Source: a virus (lineage: Duplodnaviria > Caudoviricetes). Taken from it: 59,045 bases of DNA. This document shows positions 15,521 to 39,784 of the stretch, piece by piece (positions within the stretch are counted from its first letter, which is position 1; every line of letters starts with the position of its first letter). The notes under the pieces were generated by a model. The model ran no database searches. It was given only the letters and a program-made list of their open reading frames with translations, and had not been told where the DNA came from. The stretch lies in the IMG/VR virus record IMGVR_UViG_3300025151_000040, positions 1 through 59,045 of that record, one strand, 5' to 3'. Both the position numbers and the translations under genes were made by a program.

Positions 15521-15562
15521 TGGCCGATCCAAAAAAAAGGAAGTGGTAGAAGATTATTAAGA
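15520..15562 (+). pseudogene. possible remnant of a deleted small basic gene
   Basis: Coupled ATG gives MADPKK, then GSGRRL in another frame; resembles the start of a DPK.GTGKKPKGSGRRL phage family recalled from memory. Confidence 0.35.
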
Positions 15563-16696: not shown

Positions 16697-18059
16697 AGCA
16701 GATACTTGTCTACCAGATGTAGAAGGTCTTTGCACGCCAGGAGTTACGATTGATGAACAAGTTACTGTAGAAAAAACTGAAGAAGATAAGGGAACAGAAA
16801 TTATCTATACAACGACTACCACGACTACAACTACGACTACAACAGTAACGAATGAAGATTCTGGAGACATCCTAGACGGAGGTAATGGATATGTATCATC
16901 TAACAAAGAAGGCGATATGGATATTGATTGGGGTGGCCAGGGTCCAGCATCCATGCCTTCAGGTAATTCTTGTTACGCTTTAGGTTCTGATAAGTGTGCT
17001 CAGATAACAGGAAGTGGTAATAATACTTCTACAATGGGAGTTGATGGCATGGGAACTACTTTTGTAAATACTATTGACATATCAGATTTAAATATAGACA
17101 ATGGTGGTCAAGTAAAGTATTCAATCGAAGTTGATAAAAGAGATGCTCAAGATAGAATATACATGCACGTTTCAGGATTTAACGGAACTACTTCAGTCTT
17201 TTCAGGTACTGACATCTTGTCTGACACTGGCATTGCATCAGGTTACCAATCATACAATGGGTCTTTCGATTTCAGTGGCATTTTAAATAAAGTTACTATT
17301 GAAATTGGTGGAAGAGACATAAATTTAGCTATTGGTCCACTATTTGATGATGTGACTGTTAATGTATTATATAATGTAATTGATACAATTATTACTCAAC
17401 AGATAACTTCTGTTGAAGAAATAGTTTATTTAAACATAGGAAATCCTACAGAATTAGATCTAATCGAAGAGATTATTGAATATAATGATATTACAATTGA
17501 CGAGTCAGGTGAAATTGAATTTGTTCCCATAGAAACTCCACAAGAAGATATTACTTACGAAACTGTAGAAATAGAAATAGATTTTGAGGTAGAAAATATA
17601 GAACCTGAAATAGAAGTGCAAGTTGCTTCTATAGAAGCTGAAATGGAAGCTGAAATAGAAATGGTTGAAGCTGAGGAAGAAATTACAGAAGAACCTCAAG
17701 AAGAATTACAAGAACCAGAACAAGAAACACCACAAACAGTACAAAAAGAAGAAGATTCAGAAGAAACGGTAGAAGAAGAGAAATCATCTGAACCTAAGAT
17801 ATCAGATAAGGAAAAAGCTGCTACTAAAATAGTAAAGAAGATTGATGATAAAGCTAGATATGACGATGCTGCTCAAACTAAAACTTTAATCGTAATGCAG
17901 ATACTTGGTAATACTAAAACGTTTTTTGATTCACAAGCAACAATTACTGATACTAATGTAGAAGAATATTTGTTAAAGACAATAGATGACAAATATGGTA
18001 TATTGTTTAGCAATTCACAAAATAACATAATGGAACAAATGATCAATGGCCAGTATTGA
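16632..18059 (+). CDS. large acidic exported protein (likely start ATG 16632)
   Basis: GGAG upstream of 16632; signal peptide; poly-Thr linker; Glu-rich C-terminal half. Confidence 0.65.
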   Translation: MHKMLLYLKLCLFLLLVSFYSKADTCLPDVEGLCTPGVTIDEQVTVEKTEEDKGTEIIYTTTTTTTTTTTTVTNEDSGDILDGGNGYVSSNKEGDMDIDWGGQGPASMPSGNSCYALGSDKCAQITGSGNNTSTMGVDGMGTTFVNTIDISDLNIDNGGQVKYSIEVDKRDAQDRIYMHVSGFNGTTSVFSGTDILSDTGIASGYQSYNGSFDFSGILNKVTIEIGGRDINLAIGPLFDDVTVNVLYNVIDTIITQQITSVEEIVYLNIGNPTELDLIEEIIEYNDITIDESGEIEFVPIETPQEDITYETVEIEIDFEVENIEPEIEVQVASIEAEMEAEIEMVEAEEEITEEPQEELQEPEQETPQTVQKEEDSEETVEEEKSSEPKISDKEKAATKIVKKIDDKARYDDAAQTKTLIVMQILGNTKTFFDSQATITDTNVEEYLLKTIDDKYGILFSNSQNNIMEQMINGQY

Positions 18060-18528
18060 ATATCAAGGTATAAAGTTTAGTGGTGGTAAATTCTTTATTA
18101 TACTATCTCTATTAGGAGCAATCGTAGGTGGAGGTTGGTCAGCTTATAAATTTTATGACGATTATCTAGATATGAAAGCGCAGATACAAAATTTTGTAGC
18201 TCCTGATCTTAGTGATTTCGATAAAAAAATCGCACTAGTAGAACAAGAATTAGAAATAATAAAAACTGAAATACCTATGATATTAGAAGAAGTAAGCTTA
18301 GTTGCTTCTACTGCAAAAGAATTAAAAGATGATTTGAAAGCAGACTTACGCCAAATGGAAGGCGATATTAGACATATAACTGAAATTGTAAATGATGTAG
18401 AAGATCGACAGAAAGAAGATGCTAGAGAACTTCTTGATGAAATGAAATTACTAGAAGAAAGTCTTGACTTAAAGATAGATAAAGCTTTAAATAATCCGTT
18501 GAATAATATGTCGGCTACTGTAAAATAA
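18046..18528 (+). CDS. membrane-anchored coiled-coil protein
   Basis: TM FIILSLLGAIVGGGW followed by coiled coil; C-terminal NNPL. Confidence 0.6.
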   Translation: MASIEYQGIKFSGGKFFIILSLLGAIVGGGWSAYKFYDDYLDMKAQIQNFVAPDLSDFDKKIALVEQELEIIKTEIPMILEEVSLVASTAKELKDDLKADLRQMEGDIRHITEIVNDVEDRQKEDARELLDEMKLLEESLDLKIDKALNNPLNNMSATVK

Positions 18529-18532
18529 TACC

Positions 18533-18757
18533 ATGAACATAGATCTCAAGATAGCTACTCCATATATTGTAATGGTAGTAGGTTTTGCTATGACTTGGGG
18601 TATGTGGAAATCTAGATTAGAAGCTGTAGAAACTAAGGTAGATACTATTACTCAAATGCAGTTAGACGTAGCTGTAATAAAAGAAAAAATAGTTCAAATG
18701 GACGATAAGATGGCTTGGATAGAAGAATTCTTAATTAAAAATTATAAAGAATATTAA
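18533..18757 (+). CDS. small membrane protein with coiled coil
   Basis: TM YIVMVVGFAMTWG followed by heptads. Confidence 0.55.
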   Translation: MNIDLKIATPYIVMVVGFAMTWGMWKSRLEAVETKVDTITQMQLDVAVIKEKIVQMDDKMAWIEEFLIKNYKEY

Positions 18758-20229
18758 ATCCATTCTTTCCAATTATCCCCTGTAATACTATCAGCTAAAG
18801 ACTTTTTATTGCGTAAAGCTTCGAATATCTTTTCATCAATAGTTTTAGGAGTTACAAAATCTATATAAGTAACTTTATTAGTTTGGCCTATTCTATGAGG
18901 TCTATCTTCCGATTGTAGTCTAACTTCTAAATCATAGCTATTAGCATAATAAATAACAGTAGTGGCGTTAGTTAAAGTTAATCCGTAACCACCAGTTCTA
19001 GGTTGTCCTATAAAATAATCTATTTCGCCAGCTTGAAATTGTGTAACTATTTCCTGTCTATCTTCAGATTTTGTGTCGCCATAATAAGTGGCGCATGTTT
19101 TATTAGGTAGATGTTTCTTTATAGCGTTTTCTATATCGTGAATAGATCTAGTATAGTTAGACCAAATAATAACTTGGCCTTCCGTTTCTTCAAGCACTTG
19201 AATTAATTCTGTTATTCGAGGGTTTACTTTATCTATTTCTTCTTCTCTTCCGTCATCATACTTTACGAAACCACACATGATTTGTTGTAATCTTAATAAT
19301 CGAGTAATAATAAGAGGAGCCGTTACAGATTTTTCTTCCGACAATTCTATATATGCTTTACGTCTTAATATATCATATACTTTCTTTTGTTTAGAAGTCA
19401 TTTCAATCTCTCGCTTTATGTAAATTTTATCTGGTAAATCTAAACATTCAGCTTTCGTTACACGATAAGAATAAGGTTTAATTATATCTTGTAGTTCATC
19501 TAAGTTTTGATAATCAACTATTTCATCAAACGTTCTCATATTAATAGTTCGCCTTCGTAAGACACAATAACGATTACGAAAACCATAAAAAGAAGATTGT
19601 AAGATATTATCAGAAAGAAAAGACATCTGAGTATAGATATCTATTGGCCCTGCAGTTACAGGTGTTCCTGTTAATATTCTACGATACTTTGCCATATTCG
19701 CAATCTTTAATAGATTCTTTGTTCTTCGAGCAGTTTTATGTTTTATCGTTGATGATTCATCTATAACAACCATAGACTTATGAACATTAAGAAAACGTTG
19801 AGTGTAGTGAAGTCCTTTTAGTGTACTAAAAGCTTCTATATTAATAATAAAGACTTTAAGACCGTTATGGCTAGACTTCATAAATTCGGTTAATCGTTCA
19901 ATATTCTTTTTCGTTTCAATAGGGTTCCATAACTCCATATAAATAGAATCAAGAACATCATCTGGCATATGTATAGGTATTTCTAACTTTAACCAGTTAC
20001 GATAAACACCTTTAGGTGCTACAATAATAGCACTATCTATACTGCCTTTTCTTGCAAGATAAGTTATCGTGTCTACAATAACTTTTGATTTACCAGTTCC
20101 TTGTTCCATAAATAGAGCATAATACTCTTCATCACGAGAAGTTTTAAAAACTTCCCATTGATGTTTAAATGGTTTCGTTTTATACTTATAGTCTATAAAT
20201 TCTTCATTACTAAAAGATACTTGCGTCAT
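18754..20229 (-). CDS. SNF2-family (SF2) helicase
   Basis: EQGTGKS, VIDESS, LTGTP, GLTLT, QSEDRPHRIGQ. Confidence 0.92.
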   Translation of the reverse strand: MTQVSFSNEEFIDYKYKTKPFKHQWEVFKTSRDEEYYALFMEQGTGKSKVIVDTITYLARKGSIDSAIIVAPKGVYRNWLKLEIPIHMPDDVLDSIYMELWNPIETKKNIERLTEFMKSSHNGLKVFIINIEAFSTLKGLHYTQRFLNVHKSMVVIDESSTIKHKTARRTKNLLKIANMAKYRRILTGTPVTAGPIDIYTQMSFLSDNILQSSFYGFRNRYCVLRRRTINMRTFDEIVDYQNLDELQDIIKPYSYRVTKAECLDLPDKIYIKREIEMTSKQKKVYDILRRKAYIELSEEKSVTAPLIITRLLRLQQIMCGFVKYDDGREEEIDKVNPRITELIQVLEETEGQVIIWSNYTRSIHDIENAIKKHLPNKTCATYYGDTKSEDRQEIVTQFQAGEIDYFIGQPRTGGYGLTLTNATTVIYYANSYDLEVRLQSEDRPHRIGQTNKVTYIDFVTPKTIDEKIFEALRNKKSLADSITGDNWKEWI

Positions 20230-20298: not shown

Positions 20299-20637
20299 AT
20301 GAGTTCTAAAGTATACATAGTACAAGAGAATCCATCGGTAAATGTTATGCCTGCCGCTAGATTCGGAGAACTAGATGTTATCTTTCCTTTCGGAAGTCAA
20401 ATAGTGTTTTCATCAAATAGAGCTATTTCTACTGTTAGAAAGAAATTAAAAAACTTTACAGATGAAGATTTCGTATTAGCTATGGGAGATCCGGCAGCAA
20501 TCGCTATAACGGCCATGGTAGCCGGTGAAATTAATAATGGCTATATGAAATTACTAAAATGGGATAAGCAAACTAAAGCTTATTATTCAGTAACAATTGA
20601 CTTATTCGGAAGAAAGGAGAAAGCTAATGTCAAGTGA
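20299..20637 (+). CDS. phage replication-module hypothetical protein
   Basis: Strong RBS; VYIVQE..A..FGEL..D.VL..GDP. Confidence 0.65.
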   Translation: MSSKVYIVQENPSVNVMPAARFGELDVIFPFGSQIVFSSNRAISTVRKKLKNFTDEDFVLAMGDPAAIAITAMVAGEINNGYMKLLKWDKQTKAYYSVTIDLFGRKEKANVK

Positions 20638-21208
20638 AATATTTAGTAGTCTTGAAGAAGATGCTAAACAACAACGTGAGATACCGACAGATGAAAAGTT
20701 AGGAAAACTAAATTTAGTTTGTCGTAAACTCGTAGAAAAAGAACGTCAGTATGCTGAGTATAAATCTTTAGCCAGTAAAACATATGAAGAAATTAAAGAT
20801 GTTAAGGAAAAAGAAATACCAGATGTAATGGCTTCTTTAAACATTAGTAAGTTCGTTATGGACGATGGCACTGAAATAGCTATAAAAGATGAGTTATACG
20901 CAAGTGTTAAAGAAGATAAGAGAACAGAAGCTTTAGAGTGGCTTGACTCTCAAGGTTTAGGAGATATTATTAAACATGATATAACTTTATCTTTTGCTCG
21001 TGGTGAGCATGAAGAAGCTGAGAGAATAAAAGACGTTTTAGAAAATAACGGTCAAAATAGCTACTTAGAAAAAGCTACTGTACATCCTCAAACTTTAAAA
21101 GCTACTTTTAAAGATTTAAGAAATAAAGGTGAAGATATACCGGAAGAATTATTTAATTGGTATGAAACACCTTTAGCTAAAGTAAAACTATCGAAAGGAG
21201 AAAAATAA
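20627..21208 (+). CDS. replication-module protein (likely start ATG 20627)
   Basis: AGAAAGGAGAAAG RBS before 20627; IP..M..WL...G.GDIIK..VHPQTLKA motif. Confidence 0.7.
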   Translation: MSSEIFSSLEEDAKQQREIPTDEKLGKLNLVCRKLVEKERQYAEYKSLASKTYEEIKDVKEKEIPDVMASLNISKFVMDDGTEIAIKDELYASVKEDKRTEALEWLDSQGLGDIIKHDITLSFARGEHEEAERIKDVLENNGQNSYLEKATVHPQTLKATFKDLRNKGEDIPEELFNWYETPLAKVKLSKGEK

Positions 21209-21212
21209 CGAT

Positions 21213-21971
21213 ATGTCAGAGCAAAAGCAAGTTGCTAAAAAAGAAGCAACAAACGTAGTTTTATCTGAATTAGCTGATGAAATATTAGCTGACGCAGGTA
21301 AAGGACTTCAGAATGTTACAACTGAAGATATGAGTATTCCTAGATTGGCTATTGTTCAATCAGGAAGTCCTCAAAGGAAAAAGAAAGACGACAAGTATAT
21401 AGAAGGTGCTGAAGAAGGGCACGTCTTTAATACAGTAACTAATACTCTATATAGAGGGTCGATTAAAGTTGTTCCTTGTGAGTTTATGAAATCCTATGTA
21501 GAATGGATTCCTAGAGAGAAAGGTGGTGGTTTAGTTCAAACACATGAATCTAGACCTTCCGATCTAACGAAGAATGAGAACGGTCGCTTTGTACTTCCTA
21601 ATGGAAATGAAGTTGCTGATACAGCAGATCATTACGTTATGATTATTAATGAAGATGGTTCCTACGAACCTGCTGTAATGTCGATGACAGGGTCTCTTTT
21701 ATCCGTTTCTAGAAACTGGTTAACTAGAATGAAGTTACAAAAAGAAGTAATTGGTGGTAAAATGATTGAACCTCCGACATTCTATTACGCATGGGAAATC
21801 TCTACAAGAGAGAAAGATAATGATAAGGGTTCATGGTTCATTTACAATGTAGGAGATCCATCACCTATTACTAACGCAGATTTATATAAAGATGCGAAAG
21901 CTTTATCGGAATCTATTAAAAGAGGTGAGAAAAAAGCTGCAGCAGTAGATGGCGATGACATTCCATTCTAA
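21213..21971 (+). CDS. single-stranded DNA-binding protein
   Basis: IPRL.I.Q..SP, N.KGSWF; acidic SSB-type tail DGDDIPF. Confidence 0.7.
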   Translation: MSEQKQVAKKEATNVVLSELADEILADAGKGLQNVTTEDMSIPRLAIVQSGSPQRKKKDDKYIEGAEEGHVFNTVTNTLYRGSIKVVPCEFMKSYVEWIPREKGGGLVQTHESRPSDLTKNENGRFVLPNGNEVADTADHYVMIINEDGSYEPAVMSMTGSLLSVSRNWLTRMKLQKEVIGGKMIEPPTFYYAWEISTREKDNDKGSWFIYNVGDPSPITNADLYKDAKALSESIKRGEKKAAAVDGDDIPF

Positions 21972-23817: not shown

Positions 23818-24600
23818 TTGTATTTATTTTTTGACACAGAAACGAACGGCTTGTGGCGCCGTGATCTAGAAGCCACTGATCCAAAACAACCACATCTAGT
23901 ACAAATAGCTGCACAGTTAGTAGATGAAAATGAAAAAGTTATTAATCAATGTTCGATACTTATACGACCAGAAGGTTGGACTATTCCTAAAGATGCTGAA
24001 GATGTTCATGGCATCTCCAATGAGAAGGCAGCTACTTATGGTGTACCTCTTATTAGTGCCCTTTCTGTGTTTAATTCTATGGCAGCTTCGGCTCATACAC
24101 TTATCGCACATAACTTAGCTTTTGATTTGCAAATAATTGCAAGAGATTTTCATTATTTAAAAAAATCTTTTAAACAACCTAAAGACTTGCATTGTACTAT
24201 GATGAGTACAAAAGATATTCTTAAATTAGAAAGTGATTTTGACGATTACAAATTTCCTAAACTAGTTGAAACTTATGAACACTTTTTTAATGTAGCCTAT
24301 TTCGATTGGCACGATGCTTTAGCTGACGTTCAAGTATGTAGAATTATATATTTTCATTTAAAAAATAAAGGAATTGACTTAAAAGCACCGAGAGAACTTC
24401 CTAAAAAGTTGATTAAAGTAATGAATAATGACGATTACGAGGAATTAATCGGTTTAATTTCATCTATAAATAGAGATAATATAAGCGATTGGGAAAGCAA
24501 TTTTCTCAAAGACCAAGAAGAAAGAATTGACAAATACAAAGAAAAAGTGATGATATCTGATAAACAAATGAACATAATAAGGAGAATGGCAGAAAAATGA
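23818..24600 (+). CDS. DEDDh 3'-5' exonuclease (DnaQ-like)
   Basis: FFDTETNG, IAHNLAFD, HDALADV. Confidence 0.88.
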   Translation: MYLFFDTETNGLWRRDLEATDPKQPHLVQIAAQLVDENEKVINQCSILIRPEGWTIPKDAEDVHGISNEKAATYGVPLISALSVFNSMAASAHTLIAHNLAFDLQIIARDFHYLKKSFKQPKDLHCTMMSTKDILKLESDFDDYKFPKLVETYEHFFNVAYFDWHDALADVQVCRIIYFHLKNKGIDLKAPRELPKKLIKVMNNDDYEELIGLISSINRDNISDWESNFLKDQEERIDKYKEKVMISDKQMNIIRRMAEK

Positions 24601-25553
24601 AAACAGTTGTAGTAACAGGAGCCGCAGGATTCTTAGGAAGAAACTTGTGTGAACATTTATTAAATAAAGATTATAAAGTTGTTGGTATAGATAATTTTTT
24701 AACTGGTAGTGAACGTAATGTATTTGAACATGAAAACTATTACTTTTATGAAGCAGATATCGTTAAAGACGATTTATCAATGCTTCTTCGAGATCACAAT
24801 AAAAAAGGAATTAATTACATATATAACTTAGCTTGTCCTGCTTCACCAGATCATTATAAAACTCATGCTTTTCAAACGTTAGAAGCTTGTTATACAGGAT
24901 TAAAAAACATGATTACATATTCATTAGAGCAAGGAAATGTTAGAATGCTTCATACTTCTACAAGTGAAGTTTACGGAGATCCTCAAGTAGATGAACAGGA
25001 AGAGAAGTATTGGGGAAACGTAAATTCTTTCGGACCACGTGCTTGTTATGATGAAGGTAAAAGAGTTGGTGAAGCTTTAATCTATGAATCAATAAATAAA
25101 TTAAAATCAAATATAGGAATCGCAAGAATCTTTAATACTTATGGTCCTTATATGGCGATTAACGATGGTAGAGTTATATCTAATTTTATTACAGAAGGCT
25201 TAAAAGGCAATAATCTTATCATATACGGAGGCGGTTTTCAATCTAGATCTTTTTGTTATGTTGATGATACTATAAAAGGTTTAGTTAAAATTTGTGAAAG
25301 CGATTATAAAGAAATATTTAATGTAGGAAATCCTGATCGTTATACAATAGTTGAGATAGCTGAAATAATAGCAGAAAAAACAGATGCACCTGGTTGGAAA
25401 AATACTAACCCTTCACCAGACGATCCTTTACATAGAAAGCCTAACATTAAGAAAATACAAAATATGTTAGATTGGTCGCCTCAAATTTCTTTAGACAGTG
25501 GACTTGAAAGCACTATAGATTATTTTAAGCATGCTCTCGAAAGACAAAACTAA
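24597..25553 (+). CDS. UDP-glucuronate decarboxylase (UDP-xylose synthase), extended SDR
   Basis: TGAAGFLG, YNLACPASP, STSEVYGDP, YWGNVN..GPRACYDEGKR, RIFNTYGP, DGRVISNF, DDP..RKP. Confidence 0.85.
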   Translation: MKTVVVTGAAGFLGRNLCEHLLNKDYKVVGIDNFLTGSERNVFEHENYYFYEADIVKDDLSMLLRDHNKKGINYIYNLACPASPDHYKTHAFQTLEACYTGLKNMITYSLEQGNVRMLHTSTSEVYGDPQVDEQEEKYWGNVNSFGPRACYDEGKRVGEALIYESINKLKSNIGIARIFNTYGPYMAINDGRVISNFITEGLKGNNLIIYGGGFQSRSFCYVDDTIKGLVKICESDYKEIFNVGNPDRYTIVEIAEIIAEKTDAPGWKNTNPSPDDPLHRKPNIKKIQNMLDWSPQISLDSGLESTIDYFKHALERQN

Positions 25554-27045
25554 AATAATATTAGGTCCACCTGGCACTGGTAAAACAACTACATTATTAA
25601 ATATTTTAGAAGAAGAAATAGAAAGTGGGATAGCACCAGAACGCATTGGCTTTGTATCTTTTACACGCAGAGCAATTAAAGAAGCTAGAGATAGAACACT
25701 AGAAAAATTTAAAGACATTGATAAAGATCAATTAGATTATTTTAGAACACTTCATAGTTTATGTTTTAGATCGTTAGGCTTAAATAGTGAAAGAATATTT
25801 AAAGGCTTACATATTACAGAGTTTAAAAAAATATTAAGAATAGATATGACTGGTGATGTTGACGAAGAACAGATTGTATCTAATGGTGCTAGTTTAGGAG
25901 ATCGTATGTTATTTTGCGATCAGTTAGCTAGGGCAAAGATGTGCCCTCTAAAAGATACATGGAGAGAGTTGAAGTGTGATTACTTATGGGAAGAACAGAA
26001 GTTATTCTCAGATACACTTGTTGATTTTAAAATGAAAAGAAATCTTCTTGACTTTACTGATATGTTAAGTTCTTTTTTAGATTCTGAGTACACTCCTGAT
26101 ATAGATATTTTATTTGTTGACGAGGCGCAAGACTTAACGAAGCTACAGTGGAAAGTAATTGATAAATTATCTAACTCTGTAAAAACTATTTATATAGCAG
26201 GAGATGACGATCAAGCTATATATAAGTGGGCAGGAGCTGACGTAGAAACTTTCTTAAATCTTGACGGAGAGATTAGAATATTACCTTTCAGTTATAGATT
26301 AAAAAAACGTGTTTTTGATTTAGCAAATCAAGTTACTAAAAGAATTATGCAAAGATACGATAAAGATTGGTCTAGCAGTGAGGAACAGGGATCAGTTAAT
26401 TATATTGAATCTTATGAATATGCGGATATGTCTCAAGGAGGTTGGTTAATTTTAGCAAGAAATAATTATCAATTGTATCCTATAGAAAAATATCTAAAGC
26501 AAAAAGGATATGTATTTGAAAGAAAGTTCGGTGGATTTAGAGCTAATAAACATGTTGTAGCAATTAGAACTTGGCTTCAGTTAAGTAAGGGTGATGAAGT
26601 TTCTTATGATTCTATAATGAAACTATATAGTTGTATAAGAACAGGAGAGGGAATTAAAAGAGGTTTTAAAAACGGAAACAGTTTAGATAAAGAAAAATCT
26701 TATACATATCAAGACTTAAGAAATAATCATGGTTTAATAGCAATGGGAAAGTGGGAAGAAGCTTTAGGATTAATTCCTGACGATGATAAATATTATTATC
26801 AAGCTTTAGAAAAAACAGGAGATTTATTTTACAATGAACCGAGAATAAGACTTAGCACTATACATGGAAGTAAAGGCGCTGAAGCTGAAAATGTTATGCT
26901 TCTTACAGATGTATCTTATGCTACATGGAAAAACATAAATGATCAATCAGATGATGAACATCGTGTTTTTTATGTAGGAATTACTAGAACAAAGAATAAT
27001 TTATTTATAGTGAATCCACAAGGGCTATATAGTTATCCGATATGA
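25531..27045 (+). CDS. UvrD/Rep-like SF1 helicase
   Basis: GPPGTGKT, VDEAQD, GDDDQAIY, STIHGSKG.E, YVGITR. Confidence 0.92.
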   Translation: MLSKDKTKIILGPPGTGKTTTLLNILEEEIESGIAPERIGFVSFTRRAIKEARDRTLEKFKDIDKDQLDYFRTLHSLCFRSLGLNSERIFKGLHITEFKKILRIDMTGDVDEEQIVSNGASLGDRMLFCDQLARAKMCPLKDTWRELKCDYLWEEQKLFSDTLVDFKMKRNLLDFTDMLSSFLDSEYTPDIDILFVDEAQDLTKLQWKVIDKLSNSVKTIYIAGDDDQAIYKWAGADVETFLNLDGEIRILPFSYRLKKRVFDLANQVTKRIMQRYDKDWSSSEEQGSVNYIESYEYADMSQGGWLILARNNYQLYPIEKYLKQKGYVFERKFGGFRANKHVVAIRTWLQLSKGDEVSYDSIMKLYSCIRTGEGIKRGFKNGNSLDKEKSYTYQDLRNNHGLIAMGKWEEALGLIPDDDKYYYQALEKTGDLFYNEPRIRLSTIHGSKGAEAENVMLLTDVSYATWKNINDQSDDEHRVFYVGITRTKNNLFIVNPQGLYSYPI

Positions 27046-27689
27046 AAACAAAAAAAGAAATATTAGATTTATTTTTAAATCACATAGATTCAGAAATCTA
27101 TGAAGAACCTTACTCGAACATGCATGATGGTATTATAAGACAACAAGCTGACATATTTTTAGAAAGATTTTCTATATTAAAAGAAGATAAGATACTTGAC
27201 GTAGGTTGTGGCTTTGGTTTATTTCAACAATACTTAGCTCAAAAAGGATATCACAACACGATAGGAATTACAAAAGCTAAAAAAGATATAGATAATTTAA
27301 TAGAAACTAAAACACCTTTTAGAGAAACTGATATAACATTTACAGGTTTAGATAAAGATTATGTGAATCATATATGGTGTAGACATTGTATTGAACATAG
27401 TCCTTTTCCTTATTTAACGTTATTAGAGTTTAACAGAATTATGAAAAAAGATGGTTATTTATATTTAGAAATGCCAGCACCAGAACAGGCTGCTATACAA
27501 GAACATAAACAAAATCATTACTCTGTATTACCTAAAGAAATGTGGGCTAGTTTATTAATAAGATCTGGATTTAAAATTAAAAACTTTGAAACTATTGATT
27601 TAATGTTACAAAAGAAAAACGGAGAACAATATTCTGAATCGTGGTATTTTTATATGGCGCAAAAGACTTTAGAAAAATCTTTGTTTTAA
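27042..27689 (+). CDS. class I SAM-dependent methyltransferase (small-molecule/sugar type)
   Basis: ILDVGCGFG; HCIEH..P...L.E..R..K..G. Confidence 0.85.
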   Translation: MKTKKEILDLFLNHIDSEIYEEPYSNMHDGIIRQQADIFLERFSILKEDKILDVGCGFGLFQQYLAQKGYHNTIGITKAKKDIDNLIETKTPFRETDITFTGLDKDYVNHIWCRHCIEHSPFPYLTLLEFNRIMKKDGYLYLEMPAPEQAAIQEHKQNHYSVLPKEMWASLLIRSGFKIKNFETIDLMLQKKNGEQYSESWYFYMAQKTLEKSLF

Positions 27690-27728
27690 AATAAAAATAA
27701 GTTATTATTATACTAATTAGAAAGGAGC
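27682..27728 (+). promoter_or_regulatory. putative promoter and RBS of the nucleotide-modification operon
   Basis: TTTAAA-N18-TATACT then AGAAAGGAG; same TATTATACTAA..AGAAAGGAG layout as 20268-20293. Confidence 0.5.
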
Positions 27729-27742
27729 ATTAATAAATAACT

Positions 27743-28792
27743 ATGAACGCAATCGGAAGTCATATCTTTGCTGGTGGGTTTACACTCGGAGTAGAGAAAC
27801 ATTTCAATGTACTAGCACATTTTGAAGGTGATGGCGCATATGGCGCTGACACGTTTTCTTTAAATAGACCTAATATACCAGTTTACTCTGGTCCTGCCGA
27901 CTGGCCTATTAAAGACTTTGAGGGTAAAATTGATTTCGTTTATGGTAACCCTCCTTGTGCTCCTTGGTCAACACTAGGAACGGGTGGTCGCAAAGATCTA
28001 GACTGGCGAGATGATCCTCGCATTGAAGCATGGTCTCATGTCTTTTCACTCCTTAATGACTTACAGCCAAAAGCTTTAGCGATTGAGTCCGTTCCTAGAG
28101 TATTTGCTAAAACAGGAGGTCGTCCTATGATTGACGACTTTACTAATAAAGCTATAAACTTAGGGTACAATGTTACTCATTTCTTACTTGACGGTCAGTA
28201 TACAAATTTAAATCATAGTCGTAGAAGATTCTTTTTTATGGCGCATAAAGGCGGTTTATCTTTTCCTAGATTGAATTGGAATCCAGCACCTACTATACAA
28301 GAAGTTTTAGGAGAAGTACCAGAACCTGGATACTGTAATTCATTTACTAAAACTGAAGCTGAGTTAGTACCTCAGTGCGGTCAAGGAGAACAGTTGAGAA
28401 CTGTATGGGAAAAATTAAATCCACCTGAAACTTGGGTAAGATCTGAAAAAGGAAGAAGAGGTGTAAAAGGTAGACCTCAATTTATGAAATGGAGATTACG
28501 AGCAAATAAACCTGCAGGAGTTATTGCTGGTGGATTCTACATTCACCCTACTGAACATCGATTATTAGGACATAAAGAATTAGCACACTTCGCAGGTTAT
28601 CCTCAAGACTATCAATGGGCAGGCTCTCCGACTGGTATAGGATCTTTAATCGCAAGAGGAGTTATGCCACCAGTAGGTGAATTTATAGGAAGAGTTGTAA
28701 AGAATTCTATAGCTGAAAATGAAGAAGCAAAGGAACAAGTACAGATGGTTGACTATACTAAACCACCTCAAATGGAAGATTTATTTACATGA
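27743..28792 (+). CDS. divergent DNA cytosine-C5 methyltransferase-like protein
   Basis: Motif I IFAGGF, IV GNPPC, VI ESV (normally ENV), VIII SRRR, IX RLL..E....GYP, X ARGV (normally GNAV/GNSV). Confidence 0.75.
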   Translation: MNAIGSHIFAGGFTLGVEKHFNVLAHFEGDGAYGADTFSLNRPNIPVYSGPADWPIKDFEGKIDFVYGNPPCAPWSTLGTGGRKDLDWRDDPRIEAWSHVFSLLNDLQPKALAIESVPRVFAKTGGRPMIDDFTNKAINLGYNVTHFLLDGQYTNLNHSRRRFFFMAHKGGLSFPRLNWNPAPTIQEVLGEVPEPGYCNSFTKTEAELVPQCGQGEQLRTVWEKLNPPETWVRSEKGRRGVKGRPQFMKWRLRANKPAGVIAGGFYIHPTEHRLLGHKELAHFAGYPQDYQWAGSPTGIGSLIARGVMPPVGEFIGRVVKNSIAENEEAKEQVQMVDYTKPPQMEDLFT

Positions 28793-29166
28793 GCCAGTAT
28801 AAAGATATTGATTCTTTTCATAAAAAATTTAAATTTAATCAAGGCAAAGGAATTGAATCAATGAATTATAATTTTGGTAACTGGCGTGTTGACTTTCTTA
28901 TGGAAGAGATTGCTGAGTTGACCGATGCTTTAGATAATAAAGATGATGTAGAAATACTAGATGCTTTAGTTGATATCTGTTATGTAGCTATGGGAACAGC
29001 TTGGTTAATGGGTTTACCATTTGAGAAAGCATGGAAAGAAGTACAACGGTCTAATATGGAAAAGATTAGACAAGCTAGTGATCGATCTGAATTTGACGTA
29101 GTTAAACCTGAAGGTTGGAAAAAACCAGATATAAAAGGAATAGTTAAAAAATGGCGAAAATCTTAG
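28789..29166 (+). CDS. MazG-like/all-alpha NTP pyrophosphohydrolase
   Basis: EEIAE..DALVD..YV..G..EV..SNM.K..KPEGW..PD. Confidence 0.85.
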   Translation: MSQYKDIDSFHKKFKFNQGKGIESMNYNFGNWRVDFLMEEIAELTDALDNKDDVEILDALVDICYVAMGTAWLMGLPFEKAWKEVQRSNMEKIRQASDRSEFDVVKPEGWKKPDIKGIVKKWRKS

Positions 29167-30191
29167 TTACAGGATTCACTGCTAAAGGAATTGGTAGTGG
29201 TGATAATAAATTAAATATCGCAACAAGTGCGAATCTACTTCCGAAAGCATTAAAGATGGTAGGACATGAAGTAATTCAAAGACCTATTATACCAGGTGAT
29301 GATGTTTCACAATACGATCATGTATTTGTATTTATGTTTCCACCGAATAGTTTACCAAGTGCTTATACTTATGGCGCAATGTATACATTAGCTAAAAGAC
29401 CAGACGCTGTTTGCTGTCTTGACGATTGGCAAACTAAAGATGTACCGTCAGGGTTTGCTACATTTGCAAGAGAAGGCCACTGGCGTTTATGGAAAACCCA
29501 TACACAATCTGGTGCGCCTATGAAAAAACGATATTACAACGAAGCACTAGAGTATAAACAAGAACTAAACGACTTGTGCACTACAATGGGATTTGAAGAA
29601 TGGCCGTATAGATGTCTTGCACCAGTGTATAGAACTGGTAATATTGAAGCATTAGGTATAAAAGCGAAAGAATTAATTGCATGGGATCCTACTCCTATTT
29701 GCGATTCCTATATGGAAACGCCTACAGATCTATTTAGTATTGATCAACAAGTTGACGTTAAAAATAAAGAAAAGAAATGGGTTTATGCTTCTCTCATTCA
29801 AAAGCCAGGTTGGTTAGAAAGAACACCTGGCGATTGGGAAGTACAAGCTTATGGTAATAAAAATTTAGGACAGGAAAGAATTAGTGAACATGAACTGTAT
29901 AAAATATATCAGAAATCATGGGGAGTATTAGTACCTCCTCACTATCACACTTTAAAGAAAAGCGGTTGGTGGAGAGTTCGTTATGGAATGATTAAAGATG
30001 CTGAATGTATTACTTGTGGAGATCCTACGGAACTATCAATCTTCTTTGAAGATAGAGTTAAACCTAGAAAAGCGATAGAATTGATGAGTGATAGTGAATT
30101 AAAAGATTATCGCAATAAACAGTTATTAGATTACGAAGACGTATTTTGGTCTAAAGAGGAATTAAAAAACTTTATAATAGATTTATTATGA
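29151..30191 (+). CDS. GT-B glycosyltransferase, T4 beta-glucosyltransferase-like (putative DNA glycosyltransferase)
   Basis: Rossmann-like start KILVTG; L...G.EV..YDHVFV....NS; DDW; C-terminal Y..SWGVL....WW.VR; context among nucleotide enzymes. Confidence 0.55.
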   Translation: MAKILVTGFTAKGIGSGDNKLNIATSANLLPKALKMVGHEVIQRPIIPGDDVSQYDHVFVFMFPPNSLPSAYTYGAMYTLAKRPDAVCCLDDWQTKDVPSGFATFAREGHWRLWKTHTQSGAPMKKRYYNEALEYKQELNDLCTTMGFEEWPYRCLAPVYRTGNIEALGIKAKELIAWDPTPICDSYMETPTDLFSIDQQVDVKNKEKKWVYASLIQKPGWLERTPGDWEVQAYGNKNLGQERISEHELYKIYQKSWGVLVPPHYHTLKKSGWWRVRYGMIKDAECITCGDPTELSIFFEDRVKPRKAIELMSDSELKDYRNKQLLDYEDVFWSKEELKNFIIDLL

Positions 30192-30739
30192 ACGGAATAT
30201 TAATTGTAGAAGGACCAGATGGTGCTGGTAAGACTACATTAATAAATCAACTTAGAGAACACTGGTTATTTAAAACTCGCTACATGCATCTGCGAGTTCA
30301 TAAAGAAATGGAAAAGTGGCACTGCGCTACTGCGAGAAGAGCCATTCGATTATCAAAAGATTATCTTGTTATCTTAGATAGACATTGGCCTAGTGAACAA
30401 ATCTATTCTTATGAACGATCACCTGGTCCAAGCTACGATCCTACGAATATGGTTGATTGGCTAAAGAGTCATGGTGCAATCTATATATGGGCTATACCAG
30501 AAGATTATCAAAGGTTGATTGAAGAACATAAAACTAGAAGAGAAGAAAGACATGAAGAGTACCACGATATAACGAAAGTTGTTAAAAGATATTACGATCA
30601 TTGGTACGGTACTTATGAAGGGCCAGATAATTATTTAAAGAAGATACAACCATTAAATAAAAGAAATGACTTCATACGATACGATCGGTTTACTGATAAA
30701 GATATCTTAGATAAAATAATAGATAGATTAAGACCATAG
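30188..30739 (+). CDS. P-loop dNMP kinase (thymidylate kinase-like)
   Basis: IVEGPDGAGKTT; LDR..PSE..Y. Confidence 0.85.
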   Translation: MNGILIVEGPDGAGKTTLINQLREHWLFKTRYMHLRVHKEMEKWHCATARRAIRLSKDYLVILDRHWPSEQIYSYERSPGPSYDPTNMVDWLKSHGAIYIWAIPEDYQRLIEEHKTRREERHEEYHDITKVVKRYYDHWYGTYEGPDNYLKKIQPLNKRNDFIRYDRFTDKDILDKIIDRLRP

Positions 30740-30752
30740 AAAGGAGAACTTA

Positions 30753-31538
30753 ATGCCTATGAATCATGCTAATGAAGTCTACCGTAATCTAATTGATGAA
30801 GTAGTAGACAGAGGATACGGAGCAGATCCTCGTGGTATGTTTACGAAAGAAATTATAGGACACACGACTAGATGTTCTATGAGTTCACCTATCGTTACGA
30901 TACCAGAAAGAGAACTCGGATATAAATTCATGTTCGCTGAAGCACACTGGATACTCTCTGGCGATAACCGAGTATCAACAATTAAACCTTACTCGAAAGC
31001 TATTAAAAGATTTAGTGATGACGGAGTATTTTATTTCGGAGCCTACGGTCCTAAGATCGTAGATCAACTACCTTATATATGTAAAGCTTTAAATGACGAT
31101 TTAACGACACGTCAAGCTTGTATTAATATATGGAGAGAGAAACCACCAGTATCGAGAGATATACCTTGCACGTTATCTTTACAATTTCTAATTCGAAGAG
31201 ATACCTTATATGTTATATCTAATATGAGAAGTAATGACGTATGGCTCGGTTGGCCTTACGATAACTTTAATTTTAGTATGATCGGTTTATCTGTCTGTCT
31301 CCTAATGAGACAAATGCATAATAAGAAACTTAAACTAGGAATGCTTATTAATAATGCTGGTAGTAGACATCTTTACAAGGAGAACTTCGAAAAAGCTTAT
31401 AAAGTTGCCGATTCAACAGCTTTAGGTTTTGGCTATGAAACTATTACGCCTGAAAGATTTAGTAGTTTTGAGGACTTAAAAAACGAATTAAAAGTATACA
31501 AGGATAACCCAAGTGAATTCCTCTTCGCACACACTTAG
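30753..31538 (+). CDS. thymidylate synthase-family enzyme, probably dCMP (hydroxy)methylase type
   Basis: YGP, TRQA, DIPC (catalytic Cys), MRSNDVWLGWPYD, HLY. Confidence 0.85.
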   Translation: MPMNHANEVYRNLIDEVVDRGYGADPRGMFTKEIIGHTTRCSMSSPIVTIPERELGYKFMFAEAHWILSGDNRVSTIKPYSKAIKRFSDDGVFYFGAYGPKIVDQLPYICKALNDDLTTRQACINIWREKPPVSRDIPCTLSLQFLIRRDTLYVISNMRSNDVWLGWPYDNFNFSMIGLSVCLLMRQMHNKKLKLGMLINNAGSRHLYKENFEKAYKVADSTALGFGYETITPERFSSFEDLKNELKVYKDNPSEFLFAHT

Positions 31539-31983
31539 ACCTAGTAAAGACGAATACTTTATGGACATGTGCTTTCTTGTATCTCAACGTAGCACGTGCA
31601 TGAGAAGGCAAGTAGGAGCTGTTTTAGTTAATAAGAGAAAACATGTTCTTGCTACAGGATATAACGGTGTAGCTGCAGGTCAACCTCATTGTTTAGATAT
31701 ACCTTGTATCGGTGCAAAATCTGTTAGTGGTACAGATTTAGAATTATGCGAAGCTGTTCATGCAGAACAAAATGCTCTACTTCAGTGTCAAAATGTGTTT
31801 GAAATAGATACATGTTACGTTACAGTATCTCCTTGTATGACGTGTACTAAGTTATTATTAAACACAAGTTGCCAAACGATAATCTATGCTGAAGATTACG
31901 TTGATCAGAATGCAAGAAAGTTATGGGAACGACACGATAGAAAGTGGGTAAGATTTGACGACGGATCTTTTCAAACCCACTAG
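31513..31983 (+). CDS. dCMP deaminase
   Basis: STC.RRQVGA, TGYNG, HAEQNA, SPC..C zinc motif. Confidence 0.92.
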   Translation: MNSSSHTLRPSKDEYFMDMCFLVSQRSTCMRRQVGAVLVNKRKHVLATGYNGVAAGQPHCLDIPCIGAKSVSGTDLELCEAVHAEQNALLQCQNVFEIDTCYVTVSPCMTCTKLLLNTSCQTIIYAEDYVDQNARKLWERHDRKWVRFDDGSFQTH

Positions 31984-33820
31984 CGATTGGACTCCACCTA
32001 CAGTATTACCAGATCTTTCTTCTTCGAAGATTATCGGTATTGACTTAGAAACATTCGACCCTGGTTTAAAAAAACATGGACCTGGAAGCATCAGGAAAGA
32101 TGGACATGTTTCTGGTATTAGTATAGCAGGAGATAATTACAAGGGTTACTATCTTCCTATCGCACATCAAGACGGTGGTAATCTTCCTAAACCTTTAGTT
32201 ATAAATTATTTAAAAGAATTGTTTTCTACAGATACTCCTAAAGTATTTGCTAATGCTCTCTACGATTTAGAATGGTTGCATAATTTAGGAATAAAAGTAA
32301 ATGGTAAATGCTATGACGTTCAATTACTAGAACATCTTATTGATGAGAATCAAAAAGATTATTCTCTAAAAGCATTAGGTCTAAAGTATGTTGGTGAGGG
32401 TAAAGATGAAACTTTATTAGTTGACGCCGTTAGATCAATCTTAGGAAAGAAAGATGTAAAAGGAAACTTATGGCGACTTCACAGTAGCTATGTTGGACCG
32501 TATGCTGAACAAGATGCTATCTTACCTGTAAAGATATTAAAAGAACAATGGAAGAAAATAAAAAAACAAGAATTAAATCGTATTGTACAATTAGAAACTG
32601 ATCTTACTCCTTTACTGCTAGATATGAGAGTACAAGGAGTTAATGTTGACTTAGATAATGCGGATCAAGTATCTAAAAGATTAGAAAGACAAGAACATGA
32701 AGCTCAAGATATTTTAAACAAGAAGTCAGGAATTGACTGTAACGTATGGGCAAATGAAAGTTTAGGAAGAGCATACGATAACTGCAGTATTCCTTATGGT
32801 AGAACTCCTACAGGGAAACCTAGCTTTACTCAAAGCTTTCTTGACTATGCTGAAGATGAATTATCAAGTTTAGTTTTAAAGGTAAGAAAACTAAACAAAC
32901 TAAGAACTACTTTTATTCACGGCATGATATTAGAAAAGCACGTAAACGGAAGAGTACATTGTCAATTTAATGCGAGAGGTGCTGTTACGGGTAGATTTAG
33001 TTCTAGTAACCCTAATCTTCAACAAGTACCTGCTCGTGATGAAGAACTGTCTAAATTAATACGAGGCCTCTTCTTGCCTGAAGAAAATGAAAAATGGTAT
33101 TGTATTGATTACGCACAACAAGAACCTAGACTTCTAGTTCATTTTGCTTCACGACTAAAATTACCAGAAAGTGTTACTGCTTTATCAGCTTATAAGAATG
33201 ATGAGACAACTGACTTTCATACGATGGTCGCTTCTATGGCAGGAATAAAAAGAAAACAAGCTAAGACGATTAACTTAGGTTTGTTTTATGGTATGGGTAA
33301 AAAGAAATTAGCCAATCAATTAGGATTAGAAACTAACGATGCTGAGAAATTATTTCGTCAGTACCATACTCGTGTTCCTTTCGTAAGAGGTCTTTACGAT
33401 AGAATGTTGAACTATGCGTCAAAGAACGGATACATAAAAACTTTACTTGGTCGTAAAAGACATTTCGATCTATGGGAAAATGCTAACGACTTCGGAAGCA
33501 TGGGTCATCCGTTAGAGAAAGCAAAAGAGATTTATAAAGGAAAACCTATTAGACGTGCATATACACATAAAGCACTTAATTCTTTAATACAAGGAAGTGC
33601 GGCTGACGTAACGAAAGCTGCAATGTTAAAAGTATACAAAGCAGGGTTATTGACTCCTCTCATTACAGTTCATGATGAACTTGACTTCTCTATTCCACAA
33701 GACGATAAGGGAAAAGAACAATTAAAAGAGATAGTGCATGAAATGAAAAACTGTGTTGACTTAGATCTTCCTCTTCAGGTTGACGTAGAATCTGGTAGTA
33801 ATTGGGGTAACATTGAGTGA
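31955..33820 (+). CDS. polA: family A DNA polymerase with 3'-5' exonuclease domain
   Basis: IDLET, TGRFSSSNPNLQ, DYAQQEPR, AKTINLGLFYG, IQGSAAD, VHDE. Confidence 0.95.
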   Translation: MTTDLFKPTSDWTPPTVLPDLSSSKIIGIDLETFDPGLKKHGPGSIRKDGHVSGISIAGDNYKGYYLPIAHQDGGNLPKPLVINYLKELFSTDTPKVFANALYDLEWLHNLGIKVNGKCYDVQLLEHLIDENQKDYSLKALGLKYVGEGKDETLLVDAVRSILGKKDVKGNLWRLHSSYVGPYAEQDAILPVKILKEQWKKIKKQELNRIVQLETDLTPLLLDMRVQGVNVDLDNADQVSKRLERQEHEAQDILNKKSGIDCNVWANESLGRAYDNCSIPYGRTPTGKPSFTQSFLDYAEDELSSLVLKVRKLNKLRTTFIHGMILEKHVNGRVHCQFNARGAVTGRFSSSNPNLQQVPARDEELSKLIRGLFLPEENEKWYCIDYAQQEPRLLVHFASRLKLPESVTALSAYKNDETTDFHTMVASMAGIKRKQAKTINLGLFYGMGKKKLANQLGLETNDAEKLFRQYHTRVPFVRGLYDRMLNYASKNGYIKTLLGRKRHFDLWENANDFGSMGHPLEKAKEIYKGKPIRRAYTHKALNSLIQGSAADVTKAAMLKVYKAGLLTPLITVHDELDFSIPQDDKGKEQLKEIVHEMKNCVDLDLPLQVDVESGSNWGNIE

Positions 33821-34214
33821 AGCTAATCTATGGACTCTTGCTCGTAAGCATCTTAATGATTTCTTTCTACAGCGCATTGAAACTGCCATTGAACGAGGAA
33901 TCCCTGATCTATTTTACTGTTCCCCTACTGGCGTTTCCGGTTGGATAGAAGGTAAATATGCTGATAAACCAGTTAAAGAAACATCTAAAGTTAGACTAAA
34001 GATATCTGTTGAGCAAATCGCTTGGCATCGATCATTTTCTCGATATAAAGGGCGTGTATATATCTTAGCTAAAGTCAGTAAGGAAATATATTTATACCGG
34101 CCAGAAATGGCTGAAAAGCTGATTTCTGGCGTTATTTATACCGATTTAAAGGAATTATCTATCGCATCTGATTGGAAATCAATAAAAAAGGCCCTCTCCG
34201 AAGAGAAGGCCTAA
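33813..34214 (+). CDS. PD-(D/E)xK nuclease (VRR-NUC/Holliday junction resolvase-like)
   Basis: SE..RIE...GIPD..WIEGK..Q..W. Confidence 0.75.
   Translation: MSEANLWTLARKHLNDFFLQRIETAIERGIPDLFYCSPTGVSGWIEGKYADKPVKETSKVRLKISVEQIAWHRSFSRYKGRVYILAKVSKEIYLYRPEMAEKLISGVIYTDLKELSIASDWKSIKKALSEEKA
34184..34212 (-). terminator. intrinsic terminator on minus strand
   Basis: Minus strand GGCCUUCUC-UUCG-GAGAGGGCC-UUUUUU; C(UUCG)G loop; one pair is G-U only in the minus orientation. Confidence 0.85.
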
Positions 34215-39713: not shown

Positions 39714-39784
39714 GATTAAATCAGCAAACTACCATAATTGTACTGTTATTACTGTTAGTCTTAAAACAGTACGGTGTCTTATGA
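39710..39784 (+). CDS. 24-aa hydrophobic peptide
   Basis: ATGA overlaps at both ends; MRLNQQTTIIVLLLLLVLKQYGVL. Confidence 0.55.
   Translation: MRLNQQTTIIVLLLLLVLKQYGVL

Follow-up and report, generated by a model that had tools for sequence, protein, structure and literature searches.

We analysed the virus record IMGVR_UViG_3300025151_000040 of IMG/VR, an uncultured phage, over its whole length of 59,045 bp (the window; estimated to be 96% complete). Within its replication genes we find a block at positions 27743–33820 which in our tentative reading, held at a little less than even confidence, is a phage T4-like cassette for replacing cytosine in the DNA and decorating the replacement with a sugar, with UDP-xylose made by a phage enzyme as the most likely donor. 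Genes are named here by the position of their first nucleotide and, unless stated otherwise, are located on the + strand, which carries nearly all genes of the window.

What is observed are the identities of the genes, their signature residues, their synteny and the domain fusions; the chemical steps of the proposed pathway are all inferred from these. The thymidylate synthase (TS) homolog 30753 would convert dCMP into 5-hydroxymethyl-dCMP (5hm-dCMP), the Tmk-like kinase 30188 would phosphorylate this nucleotide and the NDP kinase of the host would complete hm-dCTP. The MazG-like protein 28789 would hydrolyse the competing canonical triphosphate, the dCMP deaminase 31513 would supply dUMP to the thymidylate synthase of the host, and the DNA polymerase PolA (31955) would incorporate 5-hydroxymethylcytosine (hmC). 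After replication the putative transferase 29151, probably a distant relative of the T4 beta-glucosyltransferase (beta-GT), would work together with the C5-methylase-like protein 27743 and move a sugar from a UDP-sugar onto the hydroxyl group of hmC. The UDP-xylose synthase (UXS) 24597 would turn UDP-glucuronate of the host into UDP-xylose, the most likely donor in this sub-lineage. This would yield xylosyl-hmC, to which the S-adenosylmethionine-dependent methyltransferase (SAM-MTase) 27042 might add a methyl group. We consider it likely that hmC is made before replication and glycosylated afterwards. The original prediction for this genome had already proposed a T4-like logic, and a 5hm-dCMP synthase, a kinase, an NTP pyrophosphatase, a dCMP deaminase, a polymerase of its own and a transferase indeed fit together in this way.

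Candidate enzymes for the replacement of cytosine

The TS homolog (30753–31538; PF00303, 1.3e-18) is the only one of the genome and its closest solved relative is the CMP hydroxymethylase MilA (1.5e-19). We aligned it with E. coli ThyA, T4 gp42, RB69 gp48 and the TS homologs of related loci, the latter taken from 87 viral-contig loci which had been gathered with protein 29151 and its alignment and searched with the window proteins and hidden Markov models. At the ThyA positions 143, 146, 147, 165–169, 173 and 177 the window enzyme has the residues D C T M R S N D G D. T4 gp42 is identical at 10 of these 10 active-site positions, while RB69 gp48 and the enzyme of Morganella phage Rgz1 read E C T M R S Q N V D. 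Compared with ThyA the window enzyme thus carries L143D and N177D and keeps D169, and its catalytic Cys is aligned with C146; a HMMER alignment to a solved ThyA independently gives the same three substitutions. An Asp at position 143 is likewise found in T4 gp42 and in MilA.

Rules for reading these positions in viral TS homologs are given by Lee et al. (2026, PMC13326640). In their account N177D selects dCMP as substrate, L143D/E accompanies a hydroxymethyl rather than a methyl product since the acidic residue lets water in, and the 5-hydroxy-dCMP synthases of RB69, DLP3 and RL38J1, which depend on flavin, are recognised by D169N. This last mark is absent from the window enzyme. It is also rare among its relatives: the TS fragment spans this position in 75 viral-contig loci, all of which keep D169, and among the TS homologs of related loci D169N is seen only in Morganella Rgz1, an isolate. 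The gp42 signature without D169N therefore predicts 5hm-dCMP and not 5-hydroxy-dCMP as product and hmC as the base, which would separate the window phage from the RB69 group. The Asp described in the original prediction as typical for dCMP-specific enzymes was found where it was expected, at the position of ThyA N177. From the active-site signature we consider it quite probable that hmC is made and incorporated by this phage.

The Tmk-like P-loop (d)NMP kinase (30188–30739; phrog_761, 8e-11) is a candidate hm-dCMP kinase; its match to the Pfam family Thymidylate_kin and its similarity to RB69p045 are both confined to the P-loop region. The MazG-like all-alpha NTP pyrophosphohydrolase (28789–29166; PRA-PH, 1.7e-14; phrog_671, 1.7e-30) could be a dCTPase or a dUTPase, the label dCTPase being suggested by the position of the gene. 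T4 gp56 itself matches PF08761 (dUTPase_2), and so does the corresponding cassette enzyme of locus L056. The block is completed by the dCMP deaminase (31513–31983; PF00383, 7.2e-22; phrog_174, 2.2e-41) and by a family A DNA polymerase with a 3′–5′ exonuclease domain (PolA, 31955–33820; PF00476, 2.1e-71; PF01612, 3.2e-9). A TET-dependent route to hmC was considered and ruled out, as the genome has no match to the TET/JBP oxygenases (Tet_JBP).

We also considered whether there might be no hypermodification at all, the block being a set of ordinary genes for a thymidylate or dCMP-methyl synthase, a Tmk, a house-cleaning MazG and a C5 methylase. Each cassette gene taken alone does have such an ordinary family assignment. 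However, the TS homolog has Asp at the N177 and L143 positions like T4 gp42, in place of the Asn and Leu of ThyA, and the conserved gene order together with the domain fusions involving the 29151 family argues for one pathway. We therefore regard this explanation as most improbable.

The putative transferase family and its C5-methylase-like partner

Gene 29151 (29151–30191) encodes the putative DNA (hmC) glycosyltransferase and belongs to phrog_14998, a group of unknown function. Its family is large: 58 close clusters are found, and a profile search gives 885 cluster representatives at E<=1e-3, 773 at 1e-10 and 500 at 1e-30. Residues 1–69 of the window protein match an alignment of 28 members of the T4 beta-GT family (hhalign 92%, E 6.5e-7, 59 N-terminal columns only); when the family is compared with the single T4 beta-GT sequence the value is 27%. 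With RB69 p047 (arabinosyltransferase 1) no match was obtained by hhalign. Among the 30 nearest named clusters in the protein-language-model search Atlas, 16 of the 30 matches lie in clusters with PF13524 in 12% of the members and 2 of the 30 in clusters with PF09198, the T4 beta-glucosyltransferase family, in 40% of the members; we take both as leads only.

Several results speak against a glycosyltransferase. The single sequence has no Pfam, NCBIfam or PDB match, a profile of 45 family members finds no PDB match, none of the 45 members has a Pfam match, and the similarity to beta-GT is restricted to about 60 N-terminal columns. The description of 29151 as a beta-GT-like protein with a GT-B fold is a tentative one, drawn from the N-terminal profile match and the genomic context and not from the PF09198 model, which is matched neither by 29151 nor by the 45 family members.

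The genomic context provides what we regard as the strongest evidence that the 29151 family consists of glycosyltransferases. A TS homolog accompanies the family in all ten locus groups (A–J). Beside the family we find four kinds of sugar-nucleotide genes, namely UXS, UXS together with a UDP-glucose dehydrogenase (Ugd; loci L056 and L055), a UDP-galactopyranose mutase, and a cluster with arabinose-5-phosphate isomerase and NDP-sugar pyrophosphorylase. A UDP-galactopyranose mutase comes after the homolog in the Actinomycetia phage DSL-LC01, where this homolog carries the annotation glycosyltransferase, and such a mutase also adjoins the family match in Erwinia phage FBB1. The protein gp40 of Morganella phage Rgz1 is a homolog of 29151 (hhalign 99.85%) and is encoded between the arabinose-5-phosphate isomerase and the NDP-sugar pyrophosphorylase inside an RB69-like arabinosylation cluster. 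Rgz1 encodes an arabinosyltransferase 1 of the RB69 type as well, so that gp40 would be a further transferase there. Tandem paralogs of the family are present in L056 and DSL-LC01 and in 12 of the 12 loci of that group, an arrangement which resembles multi-step glycosylation. Taken together, the context suggests that 29151 probably glycosylates DNA.

The family has cultured carriers, which makes the chemistry directly checkable. These are Gordonia phages of the GodonK/GMA2 type, DSL-LC01, Erwinia FBB1 and T4-like phages of Aeromonas, Providencia and Morganella. Gordonia phage GodonK (L005) and DSL-LC01 (L004) encode, along with the 29151-family protein, a MazG-like protein, a "methyltransferase" of 415–425 amino acids and further glycosyltransferases; the "methyltransferase" of DSL-LC01 matches the C5-methylase-like protein of the window at 22%.

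This C5-cytosine DNA methylase-like protein (27743–28792; PF00145, 1e-23) had been described as a degenerate methylase. Its catalytic residues are nevertheless intact: PPC with C72 (motif IV), E115-S-V (motif VI), R160/R162 (motif VIII) and motif IX do not vary across 24 homologs, and the alignment to DNMT1 shows PPC, E-S-V and S-R-R-R. The cofactor motifs, on the other hand, appear atypical, with A-R in motif X opposite G-N of DNMT1 and F-A-G-G-F in motif I, which departs from the consensus F-x-G-x-G of C5-methylases. The protein is also not the bystander which it was taken for, because homologs of it are fused to the transferase family. We took the best 150 of the 885 family representatives, of which 21 are at least 550 amino acids long, and scanned 20 of these long relatives. 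In 14 of the 20 an N-terminal PF00145 domain is joined to a C-terminal 29151-type domain, and in three of the fusions (P0071, P0074 and P0085) a domain of the UDG superfamily is inserted between the two parts. Two long relatives (P0087 and P0116) end with a Methyltransf_23 domain, one (P0101) has a dUTPase_2 domain at its end, fused to the 29151-type domain, and 3 of the 20 are without Pfam match. Fused reading frames were also seen directly in the loci L049 (988 amino acids) and L053 (870 amino acids), where they adjoin TS homologs, a MazG and a deaminase; 3 of the 4 loci of this group are fused. A search for related loci with two of the fused proteins returned none. The recurrent fusions indicate that 27743 and 29151 are partners, and the fusions to C5-methylase-like, dUTPase_2 and SAM-MTase domains would tie the neighbouring genes into one module. 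From its conservation 27743 is probably a catalytic and functional partner of the transferase and not a relic.

Two further observations concern the methylase-like sequences. In the fusions P0071 (1409 amino acids) and P0096 (1222 amino acids) the methylase-like domain contains an intein with a LAGLIDADG homing endonuclease. In L012 (3972–5025), a relative with 55% identity, the C5-methylase-like gene is present as two reading frames of 204 and 145 amino acids instead of one of about 350, for which a frameshift or a faulty assembly could be responsible.

The large unnamed transferase family with its recurrent fusion to a C5-methylase-like domain is, in our view, the most notable new element of this system. 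We found no paper in the literature on such a fusion. It raises the question of what the C5-methylase fold does on DNA in which C5 is already substituted. Protein 27743 may methylate those cytosines which remain, prepare hmC for the transferase by flipping or activating it, or carry out a new chemistry.

The last possibility leads to another explanation, in which 29151 is no conventional glycosyltransferase and, together with the C5-methylase-like enzyme, modifies C5 of cytosine or hmC in a different way, for instance through covalent activation at C6, the sugar genes being linked only indirectly. The missing sequence match of 29151 to any glycosyltransferase family would fit this view, as would the frequent fusions, three of them with the UDG-superfamily domain, and the invariant catalytic Cys, Glu and Arg of a methylase-like protein whose motif X differs from that of DNMT1. 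The 29151 family is, however, also found without the methylase-like gene, which is missing from all 21 loci of group J, from L055 and from the surroundings of Rgz1 gp40 although the transferase and the TS homolog are present, so that the family can act alone. The probable homology of the N-terminus to beta-GT and the repeated adjacency to the four kinds of sugar-nucleotide genes also argue for a glycosyltransferase, and we judge the departure from this function to be rather improbable.

UDP-xylose as a possible sugar donor

The donor would be provided by gene 24597 (24597–25553; SDR/Epimerase, 7.6e-42), which we regard as an accessory of the cassette. Its best solved relative is human UXS1 (5.5e-78, 265 bits), and the next family, UDP-glucuronate epimerase, follows only at 6.8e-29 (104 bits); no NCBIfam model scores above its cut-off. 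The UXS group is defined by Thr118/Tyr147/Lys151 together with Ser119, Glu120 and Arg277, and Glu120 and Arg277 are replaced in the epimerases, as described by Eixelsberger et al. (2012, PMC3438964). All six hallmarks are present in the window protein, whose T122, S123, E124, Y151, K155 and R280 align with T118, S119, E120, Y147, K151 and R277 of human UXS1, and they are invariant across 6 phage UXS sequences. As already predicted for this gene, 24597 is thus by its sequence a true UDP-xylose synthase. While it resembles human UXS1 and the bacterial Uxs enzymes in sequence and active site, it is phage-encoded, stands in a DNA replication and modification operon and lacks a UDP-glucose dehydrogenase partner in the genome.

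Since 24597 is the only SDR of the genome, UDP-xylose should be the end product unless an epimerase of the host acts; a phage-encoded UDP-xylose epimerase could be ruled out for the same reason. An epimerase of the host is the basis of a further alternative, in which UDP-xylose is an intermediate that is converted by a host UDP-xylose 4-epimerase into UDP-L-arabinose and the DNA carries arabinosyl-hmC. Such a Uxs/Uxe route is described for Sinorhizobium and was earlier proposed for RB69 in PMC6024577, and a member of the 29151 family is located within the Rgz1 arabinosylation cluster. The phage encodes a single SDR and no epimerase, however, and the known phage arabinosylation as described by Lee et al. 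(PMC13326640) proceeds through arabinose-5-phosphate isomerase, AfhE and AfhF to UDP-arabinofuranose and acts on 5-hydroxycytosine. None of these three genes was seen among the window reading frames scanned. We hold the arabinose alternative to be very unlikely.

The association of UXS with the cassette was followed in the related loci. The gene order there is exonuclease, [UXS], UvrD helicase, [SAM-MTase], C5-methylase-like gene, MazG, transferase, kinase, TS, deaminase and PolA, where the genes in brackets occur in some lineages only. UXS is present in 3 of 3 close relatives (transferase identity >=88%) which reach the site and in 7 of 7 such loci of a second clade (52–55%). In a third clade (46–50%) it is found in 0 of the 24 loci covering both flanks; upstream this flank is the exonuclease 23818, which in the UXS-less relatives is directly followed by the UvrD helicase. 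In a quick maximum-likelihood tree of the transferases the UXS-bearing sequences form one clade (14 rows, SH-aLRT 95), whose sister group consists of the UXS-less sequences (29 rows, 99). Within the window lineage the association therefore represents one event. Some UXS-less relatives have a different SDR with 23–26% identity to the window UXS (L025, L035 and L048, where it lies about 6–7 kb downstream of the transferase, and record G005 at 9035–9730), which may be another sugar-nucleotide enzyme.

Taken over all relatives, UXS adjoins the cassette in three separate lineages and twice it does so together with UDP-glucose dehydrogenase. In L056 and L073 the order is transferase, paralog, dUTPase_2 and, further on, C5-methylase-like gene, UDP-glucose dehydrogenase and UXS; the UXS of L056 is a true one (8e-93 to human UXS1). 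A full route from UDP-glucose to UDP-xylose directly behind the C5-methylase-like gene is to our mind the best single argument that UDP-xylose feeds the cassette. In L055 a UXS (1e-97 to human UXS1) precedes a truncated UDP-glucose dehydrogenase. This region (488–2214 of record G006) shows one in-frame TGA in UXS and a dehydrogenase shortened to 266 amino acids, with most of the N-terminal domain missing; this could reflect decay, recoding or an error in sequencing.

A number of observations weigh against our reading of the cassette and in particular against UDP-xylose as its donor. The UXS-less sister clade retains every other cassette gene from the C5-methylase-like gene to PolA, which means that the cassette runs on a sugar of the host there and may do so here too. 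An alignment search gave at least 575 viral UXS matches. Among the best 80 loci, a cassette gene (transferase, TS homolog or C5-methylase-like gene) lies within 10 kb in only 5, all of the window lineage; the cassette is absent from the other 75, many of them on very large contigs. The 15 fixed differences between transferases with and without UXS are scattered and reveal no pattern of donor specificity. A UDP-glucose dehydrogenase was not found in the phage genome, so that UDP-glucuronate must be supplied by the host. As to the other enzymes, the nearest solved structure of the MazG-like protein is DR2231 (3e-8) and pairwise similarity to T4 gp56 is not detectable. In fully hmC-substituted DNA a C5-methylase would moreover be without its ordinary substrate.

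UDP-xylose could also be used by another enzyme. A GT-A-like protein is encoded in the virion module (55959–56744; phrog_1574 of unknown function, 2.8e-43; phrog_34859 "glycosyltransferase", 8e-8; a match to Anp1 at 6.9e-5 is weak and below the cut-off), and it could consume UDP-xylose in place of the cassette. This gives rise to the alternative that hmC-DNA is glycosylated with a sugar of the host, for example glucose, and that UXS is an unrelated auxiliary gene serving the virion enzyme or the remodelling of host surface glycans. Apart from the UXS-less clade and the many UXS loci without cassette, the conservation of the GT-A-like gene across 5 of 5 related genomes favours this alternative. 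Among these genomes, however, are G004 without a UXS match and G005 with nothing closer than an SDR of 26% identity, and the gene thus does not track UXS. In the distant lineages it was not found (0 of 5 records, 27–83% complete), among them the three in which UXS stands beside the cassette (G006–G008, 27–71% complete). The arrangement of Ugd and UXS directly after the C5-methylase-like gene in L056 also argues for a link with the cassette, as does the embedding of UXS in the early overlapping gene chain, 31 kb away from the GT-A-like gene; the latter favours a role in DNA modification weakly.

The original prediction had looked to the co-occurrence of UXS with either the block or the virion glycosyltransferase for a decision. 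Both transferases turned out to be core genes which are present with and without UXS, and co-occurrence can therefore not tell which of them uses the UXS product. Weighing these points we regard the use of a host sugar as somewhat unlikely and UDP-xylose as a possible donor to which we give not quite an even chance. The proposal of a xylosylated hmC accordingly stands in part: the hmC signature, the genuine UXS and the three lineages speak for it, whereas the UXS-less sister clade and the 75 of 80 UXS loci without cassette do not.

The second accessory gene encodes a class I SAM-dependent methyltransferase (27042–27689; Methyltransf_23, 6.9e-14). Homologs are found in the window and in L009, L012 and L014–L020, that is, in 1 of the 3 close relatives and in 7 of 7 loci of the second clade, and also in L020 of this clade whose UXS site is not covered. 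They are absent from the UXS-bearing loci L007 and L010 and from all 30 loci of the third clade, and in the window lineage the methyltransferase occurs only in genomes which also carry UXS. The Methyltransf_23 domains fused in P0087 and P0116 share only the Pfam family with 27042 and are not close relatives. That 27042 methylates the sugar at an oxygen is a guess.

Extending this further, 27743, with its intact residues for covalent catalysis and a changed cofactor pocket, and 29151 might constitute a two-part, often fused and so far undescribed enzyme acting on hmC-DNA, which with UXS and the SAM-MTase builds xylosyl- or O-methyl-xylosyl-hmC. Combined with other sugar genes, the same family might give rise to a series of further glycosylated cytosines, likewise undescribed, in aquatic and actinobacterial phages that have not been cultured. 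We offer this as a speculation which in its full extent is improbable.

Genome context and comparison with known systems

By megablast no close known phage was found for the window. The nearest isolates of its large terminase are aquatic phages with 39–44% identity, namely phage 023Pt_psg01, Pelagibacter phages HTVC027P and HTVC023P, DSL-LC04, Pseudanabaena phage Pam1 and Roseobacter phage CRP-901. The reading frames named in the original prediction, ten with the helicase 25531, start exactly where it had placed them, and their families were confirmed with Pfam and PHROGs except for 29151, which has no Pfam family. Its statement that most of them are translationally coupled also holds, since 8 of the 10 junctions in 23818–33820 overlap by 4–29 nt and at the two others the genes are separated by 53 and 13 nt. 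The overlapping chain opens with the gene of an RNase T-like 3′–5′ exonuclease (23818–24600; PF00929, 5.9e-15), and the UvrD/Rep-type helicase of the replication module (25531–27045; PF00580, 2.5e-31; phrog_1967, 3.3e-83) lies between UXS and the SAM-MTase. On the + strand there is no terminator-like site between 21423 and 36000. A GC-rich hairpin of 10 bp (34189–34212), which is terminator-like and listed on the minus strand, is located at the 3′ end of the reading frame 33813–34214 and likely closes the gene chain as an operon boundary. Promoter-like matches in the window are not above chance (74 found vs 64 ± 7).

Outside the gene chain a few features deserve mention. A reading frame of 217 amino acids (43842–44495) just upstream of the large terminase gene, and overlapping it, matches phrog_3704 "ferredoxin" (4.1e-94), which has the category auxiliary metabolic gene, and has no Pfam family. 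The only long minus-strand reading frame with a family match encodes a SNF2-family helicase (18754–20229), just before genes similar to gp32, gp33 and gp34 of Pam3 (20299–21971). A DenV-like pyrimidine-dimer DNA glycosylase is encoded at 39781–40311; this family is also found directly after UXS in L056 (17205–17729) and near the cassette in DSL-LC01. In the left arm (1–16700 and 16557–18528) most of the large reading frames (e.g., 985, 642, 619, 500 and 420 amino acids) have no Pfam match, and the two which were scanned against PHROGs, those of 985 and 500 amino acids, have no match there either. The sole match, a weak one to a Peptidase_S74 chaperone at 8451–9551, suggests tail fibres.

Restriction enzymes and CRISPR nucleases are kept from phage DNA by glycosylated cytosines, which are in turn the targets of type IV restriction. 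To our knowledge only glucose on hmC, arabinose on 5-hydroxycytosine and galactose or glucose on 5-hydroxycytosine are chemically established. Xylosyl-hmC, if it is formed, would be a new sugar for the hmC branch, and xylose is not known from DNA so far; in agreement with the original prediction, a xylosylated DNA base was not found in searches of full-text papers. The 885 representatives of the 29151 family, standing beside varied sugar genes, could be a general entry point to new DNA sugars.

Phage T4 makes glucosyl-hmC with the dCMP hydroxymethylase gp42, the kinase gp1, the dCTPase gp56, the deaminase cd and alpha- and beta-glucosyltransferases. The window shares with it the signature of ten residues in the TS active site and likewise encodes an all-alpha NTP pyrophosphatase, a dCMP deaminase, a dNMP kinase and a putative transferase whose N-terminus is probably homologous to beta-GT. 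It differs in having PolA where T4 has PolB, a Tmk-like kinase, a pyrophosphatase of the PRA-PH/MazG type and a transferase without PF09198 match, and its C5-methylase-like partner, SAM-MTase and UXS are without counterpart in T4. Another route to modified cytosines has reportedly been described by Burke et al. in 2021, a phage hypermodification system with TET, in which a C5-cytosine methylase and a glycosyltransferase are said to be encoded together. Unlike that system the window has no TET/JBP match, and hmC is expected to arise before replication from the TS homolog.

With the glycosylated 5-hydroxycytosines of RB69, DLP3 and RL38J1 (Lee et al. 2026, PMC13326640) the window has in common the triad of kinase, glycosyltransferase and TS homolog, a phage-encoded supply of sugar nucleotides and, more generally, the idea of "glycodiverse" cytosines put forward there. 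A member of the 29151 family, Rgz1 gp40, is even located inside an RB69-type cluster. The earlier comparison with RB69 needs to be revised as far as the base is concerned, since RB69 is now known to use 5-hydroxycytosine and not hmC (PMC13326640). As D169N is missing from the window enzyme, the acceptor should be hmC and not the 5-hydroxycytosine of the RB69 type. The transferases are distinct as well, 29151 showing no detectable similarity to RB69 p047, and so is the sugar supply, which comes from UDP-glucuronate through UXS in the window and from arabinose-5-phosphate isomerase, AfhE and AfhF in the RB69 type.

The nearest described case is Shewanella phage Thanatos (PMC12838424), whose cytosine is reported to carry a deoxypentose that is "putatively xylose". 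As in the window, a phage enzyme makes UDP-xylose. According to this report the sugar of Thanatos is, however, O-linked directly to the base, and its identity as xylose is not established there; the TS homolog of Thanatos makes 5-hydroxycytosine according to Lee et al. (PMC13326640). The two phages would also differ in the source of the sugar nucleotide, because Thanatos obtains UDP-xylose from a pyrophosphorylase (TH1_063) in an RB69-like cluster (PMC12838424) and the window phage would make it from UDP-glucuronate of the host with its own UXS.

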